Below, piece by piece: positions 502-1,814 of a stretch of DNA of 4,260 bases. This stretch comes from a virus. Its lineage: Duplodnaviria > Heunggongvirae > Uroviricota > Caudoviricetes. How positions within the stretch are numbered: the stretch's first letter is position 1; every line of letters begins with the position of its first letter. Location of the stretch: the IMG/VR virus record IMGVR_UViG_2529293063_000009; one strand, 5' to 3'. The notes beneath the pieces were generated by a model. That model saw only the letters and a program-made list of their open reading frames with translations. It was not told the origin of the DNA and ran no database searches. Made by a program: the position numbers and the translations under genes.

Positions 502-1173
502 TCAGCGACCAATCACCACAACCTGACCACCGTCCCCTTCGTCTGCCGTGCTGATCTCCTGAGAAACCACGCGTGACCCCACGCGCATTTCCCCGTACAG
601 AACAGGCAGAACATTGCCCTGGGCAACCATGTTATCCAGTGAGGAGAAATAGGTGTTCTGCTTACCGTTATCCGTTGTCTGTGTACGGGGAGTTCTGGCT
701 TTCGGTGCCAGCATCTGCGCCACACCACCGAGCACCATACTGGCACCGAGAGAAAACAGGATGCCGGTCATACCACCGGCCCCAATGGCTGCCCCCCATG
801 CTGCAAGGGTGGCTCCGGCGGTAAAGAATGATCCGGCAATGGCGGCAGCCCCCAGGACAATCTGGAATACGCCACCTGGCTTGGCCCCGGCGACTCTGGG
901 AACAATATGAATCACAGCGCCATCAGGCAGAGTCTCATGTAACTGCGCCGTTAACCCGGACGTGCTGACGTCCCGCCCGGCAATCCGTACCTGATACCAG
1001 CCGTCGCTCAGTTTCTGACGAAACGCCTGGAGCTGTGTGGCCAGTGCCCGGATGGCTTCAGCCCCCGTTTTCACACGAAGGTCGATGCGGCGACCAAATC
1101 GTTGTAAATCCCCGTAAAGGCAGATGCGCGCCATGCCCGGTGACGCCAGAGGGAGTGTGTGCGTCGCTGCCAT
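502..1173 (-). CDS. I: Tail tip assembly protein I (223 aa): N-terminal putative ubiquitin-like region, then a Gly/Ala-rich hydrophobic segment
   Basis: ORF track 223 aa MAATHTLPLASPGMARICLYGDLQRFGRR...; length and sequence match my recollection of lambda gpI. Start lies inside the 3' end of K in a different frame, as in lambda. An AGAGG sits 11 nt upstream of the ATG (weak SD). Confidence 0.92.
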   Translation of the reverse strand: MAATHTLPLASPGMARICLYGDLQRFGRRIDLRVKTGAEAIRALATQLQAFRQKLSDGWYQVRIAGRDVSTSGLTAQLHETLPDGAVIHIVPRVAGAKPGGVFQIVLGAAAIAGSFFTAGATLAAWGAAIGAGGMTGILFSLGASMVLGGVAQMLAPKARTPRTQTTDNGKQNTYFSSLDNMVAQGNVLPVLYGEMRVGSRVVSQEISTADEGDGGQVVVIGR

Positions 1174-1814
1174 TTGTCGGTGTACCTCTCTCGTTTGCTC
1201 AGTTGTTCAGGAATATGGTGCAGCAGCTCGCCGTCGCCGCAGTAAATTGCGGCGTGATTCGGCACTGATGAACCAAAACAGCACAGCAGCACATCGCCCG
1301 GCTGTGCCGCTGACAACGGCACCTGATACAGCCCCGTCGCCTCCAGATTATCCAGATAGAGATTCTGGCCGTTACGCCACCAGTCATCCTCACGATAAAA
1401 GTCCGGCATCTCAATCCCCGCCAGATGATAAGCATCCCGGAACAGTGTGTAACAGTCCGTCACACCGTGCTCAAAGCGCCGCCCGGTGAGATGCGGCACA
1501 CAGCGGAACTTATGAATCGTCCCCCGGCAGACCAGCCACCACGGCAAATCACTCTGCACCTGCAGCCGCCGGTCGGCCTCACTCAGCCAGGGCAGACCAC
1601 CGGGGTGGCTGTGGACCAGCGCCACAATCTCACCCTGCATTTCTGCCTGCAGCCAGTCTTCCGGCGACATACGGAAATACGCCTCCGGCTCACCGGAGAT
1701 ATTCACGCAGGGAAAATATCTTTCCCCCTCCGGCGTGCTTACCACGAAGCCGCACGACTCCGCTGGCGCACATCGCCGGGCGTGCGCCAGAATCGCTGAT
1801 TCTGTCTGTGTCAT
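1071..1814 (-). CDS. K: Tail tip assembly protein K, with JAMM/MPN-type metalloprotease motif and NlpC/P60 Cys-His-His peptidase domain; coordinates are the full 247-codon ORF, the classical 199-aa annotation would start at 1670
   Basis: ORF track 247 aa. HSHPGGLPWLSEAD (HxHx7Sx2D JAMM signature) at ORF residues 68-81; NlpC/P60-like Cys121 (DCYTLF), His187 (VPNHAAIY), His199/200. Internal Met49 at 1670 gives a 199-aa product, the lambda gpK length as I recall it. Overlaps I by 103 nt. Confidence 0.88.
   Translation of the reverse strand: MTQTESAILAHARRCAPAESCGFVVSTPEGERYFPCVNISGEPEAYFRMSPEDWLQAEMQGEIVALVHSHPGGLPWLSEADRRLQVQSDLPWWLVCRGTIHKFRCVPHLTGRRFEHGVTDCYTLFRDAYHLAGIEMPDFYREDDWWRNGQNLYLDNLEATGLYQVPLSAAQPGDVLLCCFGSSVPNHAAIYCGDGELLHHIPEQLSKRERYTDKWQRRTHSLWRHRAWRASAFTGIYNDLVAASTFV

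Follow-up and report, generated by a model that had tools for sequence, protein, structure and literature searches.

A 247-residue gpK with a complete JAB/JAMM domain is predicted for lambda-type phages, and the 199-residue form follows from one base missing in the lambda reference

The stretch of DNA analysed here, hereafter called the window, comprises 4,260 nucleotides of IMG/VR virus record IMGVR_UViG_2529293063_000009 (Caudoviricetes) and carries on its minus strand a lambda-type phage tail-tip block with the gene order H-M-L-K-I. We focused on the start of gene K, which encodes tail assembly protein K (gpK), a predicted JAB/JAMM and NlpC/P60 peptidase. The DNA of the K region is 100% identical to that of the Stx2k phage phiSTEC1575 (OQ243220) and 99.6-99.8% identical to that of lambda and its laboratory derivatives; judged by sequence and by its place between L and I, the gene is the orthologue of lambda gpK, also called TAPK. 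We conclude that K is very probably translated from the ATG at position 1814 into a protein of 247 residues (28.3 kDa), i.e. that the 48-codon N-terminal extension over the known lambda protein is real. The length of 199 residues given for lambda gpK is a consequence of the reference sequence, and is neither a measured N-terminus nor evidence for a rival start.

The complete K coding sequence occupies positions 1071-1814 of the minus strand (247 codons followed by a TGA stop at 1073-1071). As already read in the initial annotation, its ATG (Met1, 1812-1814) follows the TAA stop of L (1820-1822) after a 5-nt spacer (ATCCC) and is not preceded by a purine-rich Shine-Dalgarno (SD) sequence (..CAAACTTTCGCAGTAAATCCC followed by ATG). 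Met49, the legacy start of the 199-residue form, is the ATG at 1668-1670, and a GGAGG lies 11 nt upstream of it (1682-1686). The disputed 48-codon segment thus spans positions 1671-1814. Every position given for K in the initial annotation was confirmed.

Alignment of the window with J02459, NC_001416, OM418625 (lambda imm21) and OQ243220 revealed the origin of the shorter form. Both J02459 and NC_001416 are one G short at 14266, which corresponds to position 1680 of the window, where GGAGGC-G-TAT is found instead of GGAGGCTAT. The missing base adjoins the GGAGG and lies ten bases before Met49. Translation of J02459 from ATG 14133 (MTQTESAILAHARRCAPAESCGF...) departs from the K frame past codon 45 and meets a stop as codon 77, and ATG 14276 is then the first start available to the K frame. 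The protein was therefore given 199 residues because, in a sequence devoid of this G, everything upstream is out of frame and Met49 is the first usable start. The start-site ambiguity raised in the initial annotation dissolves, since it arose from a reference that lacks one base. The lambda reference protein (AAA96551/NP_040598, 199 residues) is the product of the same gene (99.6% DNA identity, same order H-M-L-K-I); it lacks residues 1-48, and its sequence is identical to residues 49-247 of the window protein except for Y140H. The window encodes all 247 residues, as does every other lambdoid sequence examined, reference-like G-less records apart.

The nearest in-frame stop upstream of K is the TAA at 1836-1838, and as there is no start codon between it and position 1814, the ATG at 1814 is the first possible K start. 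The open frame itself was rejected as evidence of coding, because 48 stop-free codons arise in 13.6% of mononucleotide shuffles of the region, and comparative evidence was therefore needed. For this purpose we used 120 distinct lambdoid K genes from IMG/VR with 72-100% nucleotide identity to the window. The DNA-level tests were limited to this range, as an IMG/VR search for more distant DNA loci with a 60%-identical homologue (P0127) gave nothing.

An ATG stands at the position of Met1 in 102 of these 120 genes, and the remaining ones start a few codons away, with an AGGAG/GGAG SD or a TGATG stop/start overlap. Codons 1-60 do not contain a single indel. Changes in codons 2-48 are distributed as 39, 41 and 73 over the first, second and third codon positions, and the ratio of nonsynonymous to synonymous substitution rates (dN/dS) against the window, calculated for divergent pairs, is 0.13-0.35 for codons 2-48 and 0.11-0.42, i.e. 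in the same range, for codons 49-107. The comparison of K homologues proposed in the initial annotation thus came out in favour of the longer form, with conservation and third-position bias reaching up to Met1.

Profile searches of the two forms gave a full match to the JAB family for the 247-residue protein only, in line with the initial annotation. The long form matches Pfam PF14464 (Prok-JAB) with 52.3 bits (E-value 6e-14) over residues 3-104 and profile positions 3-112 of 114, and the short form reaches 23.3 bits over profile positions 63-112, which is under the gathering cut-off of 25 bits. Even the isolated 48-residue piece matches profile positions 3-41. Residues 111-224 match Pfam PF00877 (NLPC_P60) over the entire profile (positions 1-105 of 105; 48.3 bits, cut-off 23 bits). 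In addition, phmmer aligned residues 7-105 of K to a JAB protein of solved structure, 2kks (E-value 1e-5), with LAHARRCAPAESCGFVV placed against LAHARQALPNEACGLL. PHROG hits annotated as 'tail' (phrog_30/2635) agree with the assignment of K to the gpK/TAPK tail assembly proteins.

An exhaustive HMMER search of 1.84 billion cluster representatives returned 2,773 hits. For divergent full-length homologues (35-60% identity, about 230-260 residues) the alignments begin at K residues 4-10 and at residues 3-15 of the homologue, and in 106 of 108 such proteins the N-terminus lies at or before K residue 11, a single one aligning at residue 49. Homologues that uniformly begin at the equivalent of Met49, which would have favoured the shorter protein, were thus not found; most of the 108 proteins have Ile there (65), followed by Met and Leu (14 each). 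In the N-terminal part of K, residues 8-22 belong to the best conserved ones. Within the disputed segment E19 is conserved in 95% (103/108), C21 in 91% and G22 in 97% of the divergent homologues, values as high as those of H68 (97%), H70 (96%), S78 (90%) and D81 (97%). An alignment of 101 homologues gave a consistent picture, H68, H70 and D81 being invariant, and P17, E19, C21, G22, S69 and S78 conserved in at least 90% of sequences. In the C-terminal half, C121 (codon at 1452-1454) is conserved in 95% of the 108 homologues, and in the alignment of 101, D120 and H199 are invariant, and H187 and H200 reach at least 90%.

The JAMM motif has been defined as EXnHS/THX7SXXD (PMC300881). Its zinc-binding part, H68-S69-H70-x7-S78-x2-D81, is encoded at 1572-1613, with H68-S69-H70 at 1605-1613 and thus at the residues named in the initial annotation. 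In K the motif is complete as E19...H68-S69-H70-PGGLPWL-S78-EA-D81 (E-x48-H-S-H-x7-S-x2-D), which holds only if translation starts upstream of codon 19, as E19 belongs to the extension. It had been argued that a JAMM domain needs a Glu and a beta strand some 40-50 residues ahead of the HxH and that these occur only in the extension; this was borne out. Of the three Glu residues put forward, E19 (codon GAG, 1758-1760) stood the test, being located 49 residues before H68 within a P17-x-E19-x-C21-G22 signature and aligned with the corresponding Glu of 2kks, and E29 and E31 were rejected as not conserved. By conservation and motif, E19 is the catalytic (general base) Glu of the JAMM motif.

An AlphaFold2 model of K, built on a 102-sequence alignment, had a mean predicted local distance difference test score (pLDDT) of 97.2 and a predicted template modelling score (pTM) of 0.91, and residues 1-50 scored 97-98. 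In this model helix 1 covers residues 3-15, strand 1 residues 21-27, strand 2 residues 30-36 and helix 2 residues 51-60, and Met49 is an internal residue directly before helix 2. Foldseek placed the N-terminal half on Pyrococcus furiosus JAMM1 (5ld9/5lda) with template modelling (TM) scores of 0.66-0.69 and a root-mean-square deviation of 2.5-2.6 Å over 107-109 columns, and also matched it to 2kks, Rpn11, CSN5 and AMSH. The C-terminal half matched MepS/Spr, LytE and Acd autolysins. The N-terminal half of the modelled protein thus appears to adopt the MPN fold, in which helices flank a central beta sheet.

Based on these results, we predict that residues 1-107 (1494-1814) form a JAB/JAMM (MPN+) zinc metallopeptidase domain, in which E19 would act as the general base and H68, H70 and D81 as zinc ligands, together with S78, and that residues 108-230 (1125-1493) form an NlpC/P60 (C40) cysteine peptidase domain with C121, H187 and H199. 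Motif, profile and predicted fold assign K to the JAB/JAMM family, with a predicted zinc-dependent (iso)peptidase activity, and profile and conserved Cys/His residues assign it to the NlpC/P60 family, likewise with a predicted activity; a literature search yielded no report of zinc binding or (iso)peptidase activity for K. As helix 1, strands 1-2 and the catalytic Glu of the JAB fold are encoded by the first 48 codons, these would belong to the enzyme proper rather than form a leader.

The genes next to K are packed closely, H and M overlapping by 4 nt and M and L by 1 nt. As the ATG at 1814 has no SD, lies 5 nt past the L stop and belongs to such an equally packed block, we infer that in the lambda group it is most likely used by ribosomes directly after their termination on L (termination-reinitiation coupling). 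Coupled initiation would suit a protein that is needed in small amounts and is absent from virions. Relatives with a different L-K junction have AGGAG/GGAG at proper spacing or a TGATG overlap before the Met1-equivalent start. In four IMG/VR loci (L143, L140, L142 and L120) the junction is replaced, in the 40 nt upstream of K, by a hairpin with a T-run, e.g. AAACCCAGCTTCGGCTGGGTTTTTTAT, which resembles an intrinsic terminator. An SD and the K start come next, and in these relatives K hence does not lie directly downstream of an L stop.

The G-less allele was searched for as a 61-mer in phage records and in 5,426 complete Escherichia coli genomes. Among 122 matching phage records an exact match was found only in J02459, NC_001416, OR474059 and OR974322. 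In the E. coli genomes the segment was found at 7,198 places, spread over 3,923 genomes, and never in the G-less form; the best identity was 98.4%, equivalent to one additional base. The G is present in the lambda stocks imm21, imm434, h434 imm21, DE3, KT232076, PV340536 and LC730321. OR474059 is an engineered strain, flagged UNVERIFIED, whose first 24.5 kb are identical to J02459; it was rejected as independent support for the allele, and OR974322 was judged, without proof, not to be independent either, as it is a near-copy of the reference. The latter record differs from J02459 at 6 sites and has the Sam7 amber change (45352 G>A), but neither cI857 nor ind1. It resembles laboratory or control DNA for which the reference guided the assembly, and no other non-derivative record has a G-less K.

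LC730321 (Lambda_AGU) was considered as a possible re-sequencing of the J02459 strain and rejected, since with 15 differing sites it represents a different lambda stock. Three of the differences are indels, namely the loss of a G at 138 and the gain of the G at 14266 and of a C at 20833, the C falling into the interval after orf-401 and before orf-314.

According to Feiss et al. (2022), many laboratory lambda strains carry 9 differences relative to the 1982 sequence, the positions being unlisted. No paper naming the 14266 insertion or a 247-residue gpK was found in a full-text literature search, and the 14266 G is not listed in the supplement of a lambda mutation-accumulation preprint, which mentions 8 ancestral differences. 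The most likely origin of the G-less allele is a sequencing (gel-reading) error made in 1982 in the G/C-rich run CCGGAGGCG.

Several observations weigh against translation of the long form from ATG 1814. The 247-residue N-terminus is a predicted one, and gpK, which is required for lambda tail assembly, was not found in virions by mass spectrometry (PMC10721106). The homologue N-termini are starts set by gene callers, which favour long open reading frames; the conservation of E19, C21 and G22 and the dN/dS values are independent of gene calls. OR974322 is a reference-like record from an environmental sample (chicken cloacal swabs) that carries the G-less allele, and its reference-guided origin is unproven. 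It is conceivable, yet in our opinion quite unlikely, that the allele is no sequencing error and that the lambda cI857 Sam7 stock used in 1982 really contained it, as some commercial DNA perhaps still does. If true, a lambda with only a truncated K, devoid of the catalytic Glu and an intact JAB domain, would have full viability under laboratory conditions; tail assembly as such would not need the JAB domain, whose real job would be elsewhere, e.g. in the stripping of host Bil-type ubiquitin-like conjugates off the tail fibre, a counter-defence speculated on by Hor et al. (2023). In a weaker variant of this explanation lambda would normally make both the 247- and the 199-residue K. Finally, the ATG at 1814 has no SD, whereas Met49 has the GGAGG at usable spacing, and K might then yield two products, the 247-residue protein and a minor 199-residue, NlpC/P60-only species initiated internally at the in-frame Met49, which we consider very unlikely. 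The GGAGG and the codon-49 ATG are both kept in 91 of the 120 close lambdoid K genes, the NlpC/P60 domain has a fold of its own and might in principle exist by itself, and the nested lambda pairs C/Nu3 and S107/S105 are comparable. However, 13 sequences keep the GGAGG without an ATG at codon 49 (ATT/ATA/ATC/CTG), 12 have this ATG without any SD-like 4-mer, and Met49 is replaced by Ile in most divergent homologues. The GGAGG lies within codons 43-45, and from the pattern of conservation we regard it as a by-product of the Pro43-Glu44-Ala45 codons that is not co-conserved with the ATG. Moreover, a product started at Met49 would carry a 59-residue JAB piece without helix 1 and two core strands, which according to the model would probably misfold, and no experimental report of two K species was found in the literature search.

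Met49 as the sole start, with the upstream 144 nt being an untranslated spacer or a decayed JAB remnant, has next to no probability in our view. It is annotated as such in J02459, NC_001416, HK630 and lambda imm21, the last of these with a ribosome binding site annotated at the GGAGG, a good SD-like motif. Nevertheless, the J02459 annotation was forced by the missing base, and HK630 and imm21 were labelled 'similar to phage lambda protein' although the G is present in both and their 247-codon frame is open. The purifying selection on the segment, its lack of indels, the conserved Glu and the score of the short form below the Pfam JAB threshold speak against a spacer as well, and 17 of the 120 lambdoid genes cannot start at codon 49, as they have ATT, ATA, ATC or CTG there. 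With a Met49 start, L and K would also be separated by 148 nt, more than any other gap from Nu1 to J in J02459, in an operon that is otherwise tightly packed. The in-frame GTG codons 24 (1745) and 37 (1706), of which GTG37 is annotated as the start in KT232076 (211 residues), are hardly credible as intermediate starts: neither is preceded by an SD, both lose E19 and strand 1, and GTG37 also strand 2, even though residues 8-22 are well conserved and the homologue N-termini cluster at Met1. Translation from ATG 1814 therefore remains the reading that we prefer. Tryptic peptides expected from the N-terminal segment are TQTESAILAHAR, CAPAESCGFVVSTPEGER and YFPCVNISGEPEAYFR, the last of which spans the frameshift site.

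The other genes of the block on the minus strand are the 3' part of H (to 2844), M (2847-2518), L (2518-1820) and I, whose classical open reading frame runs from 1173 to 502. Gene I presents a start problem that mirrors that of K (1074-1173, minus strand). With the classical ATG at 1173 it encodes 223 residues and overlaps K by 103 nt (1071-1173), and the NCBI annotation pipeline PGAP, PV340536 and KT232076 start it at GTG 1074, giving 190 residues and a 4-nt overlap with the K stop. The Pfam Lambda_tail_I profile matches residues 14-97 of the 223-residue form over positions 2-83 of 83 (98 bits), and the 190-residue form over positions 26-83 only (67 bits), so the shorter form truncates the ubiquitin-like domain, which begins at Met14 (ATG 1134).

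The last ~17 residues of K (RASAFTGIYNDLVAASTFV, 231-247, positions 1071-1124) lie in this overlap and are missing in most divergent homologues, whose C-termini lie near residue 230. Model confidence is lowest (81) in the final 10-residue block. Substitutions in codons 231-247 number 4, 15 and 16 over the three K codon positions, and the least variable one is position 2 of the I frame, which suggests, as far as substitution patterns can tell, that selection here follows I and not K. Residues 231-247 may exist mainly owing to the overlap with I.

A 1.4-kb comparison of the window with lambda showed 13 differences, six of which lie within 90 nt of L (1955-2042). The adjacent changes at 1965-1966 (CA in the window, AG in lambda) presumably replace Ser by His in the ..ECGY(H/S)GP.. 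sequence of gpL, within its Cys-rich C-terminal part. Phage phiSTEC1575, whose K is identical to that of the window, has the lambda bases in L 1955-2042, and the window is thus a mosaic with respect to lambda and phiSTEC1575. The Cys-rich part of gpL was described as a 4Fe-4S domain in a 2020 structural survey.

The two-domain architecture predicted for K is exactly that of the lambdoid TAPK proteins, with no difference in kind. Iyer et al. (2006) described these as JAB plus NlpC/P60 proteins encoded next to the ubiquitin-like TAPI (gene I) and TAPJ, in a paper that discusses neither the lambda start site nor the reference frameshift, and hypothesized that K processes the ubiquitin-like domain of gpI. 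Hor et al. (2023) speculated that K removes host Bil-type ubiquitin-like (Ubl) conjugates from the tail fibre as a counter-defence. P. furiosus JAMM1 (5ld9, and 5lda with the ubiquitin-like SAMP2) and Desulfitobacterium DSY2949 (2kks) are stand-alone JAB domains of about 125-145 residues. The predicted K residues 1-107 superpose on them with TM scores of 0.57-0.69, and the match to 2kks includes the E-x-C-G segment. K differs from these proteins in its fused NlpC/P60 domain and in its role in phage tail assembly; an isopeptidase activity of K is putative. The C-terminal domain shares its fold and conserved Cys/His residues with E. coli MepS/Spr and other C40 peptidases; unlike MepS/Spr, K has neither a signal peptide nor cell-wall-binding modules and would be cytoplasmic during assembly, and a peptidoglycan substrate is putative.

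K is therefore an already known protein whose reference annotation is out of date, and no new kind of system. PGAP already assigns the 744-nt coding sequence to a 'C40 family peptidase' in E. coli genomes, and 247 residues are given in PV340536, a 2025 lambda record, and in phiSTEC1575. The value of our finding is that of an erratum for a model organism: J02459, NC_001416 and AAA96551 miss the first 48 residues of the K JAMM domain, and the 199-residue start was copied into the curated records of the G-bearing phages HK630 and lambda imm21. The 2003 JAMM structure paper lists the lambda K entry as AAA96551, and the 2020 structural survey analysed the 199-residue gpK and reported the C-terminal peptidase domain alone. 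Reagents and guides designed from NC_001416 treat 14128-14275 as intergenic. For testing gpK as a deubiquitinase-like enzyme, on gpI or on host Ubl conjugates, the gene should be cloned from ATG 14133 of the G-corrected sequence, as a shorter construct would lack the predicted catalytic Glu.

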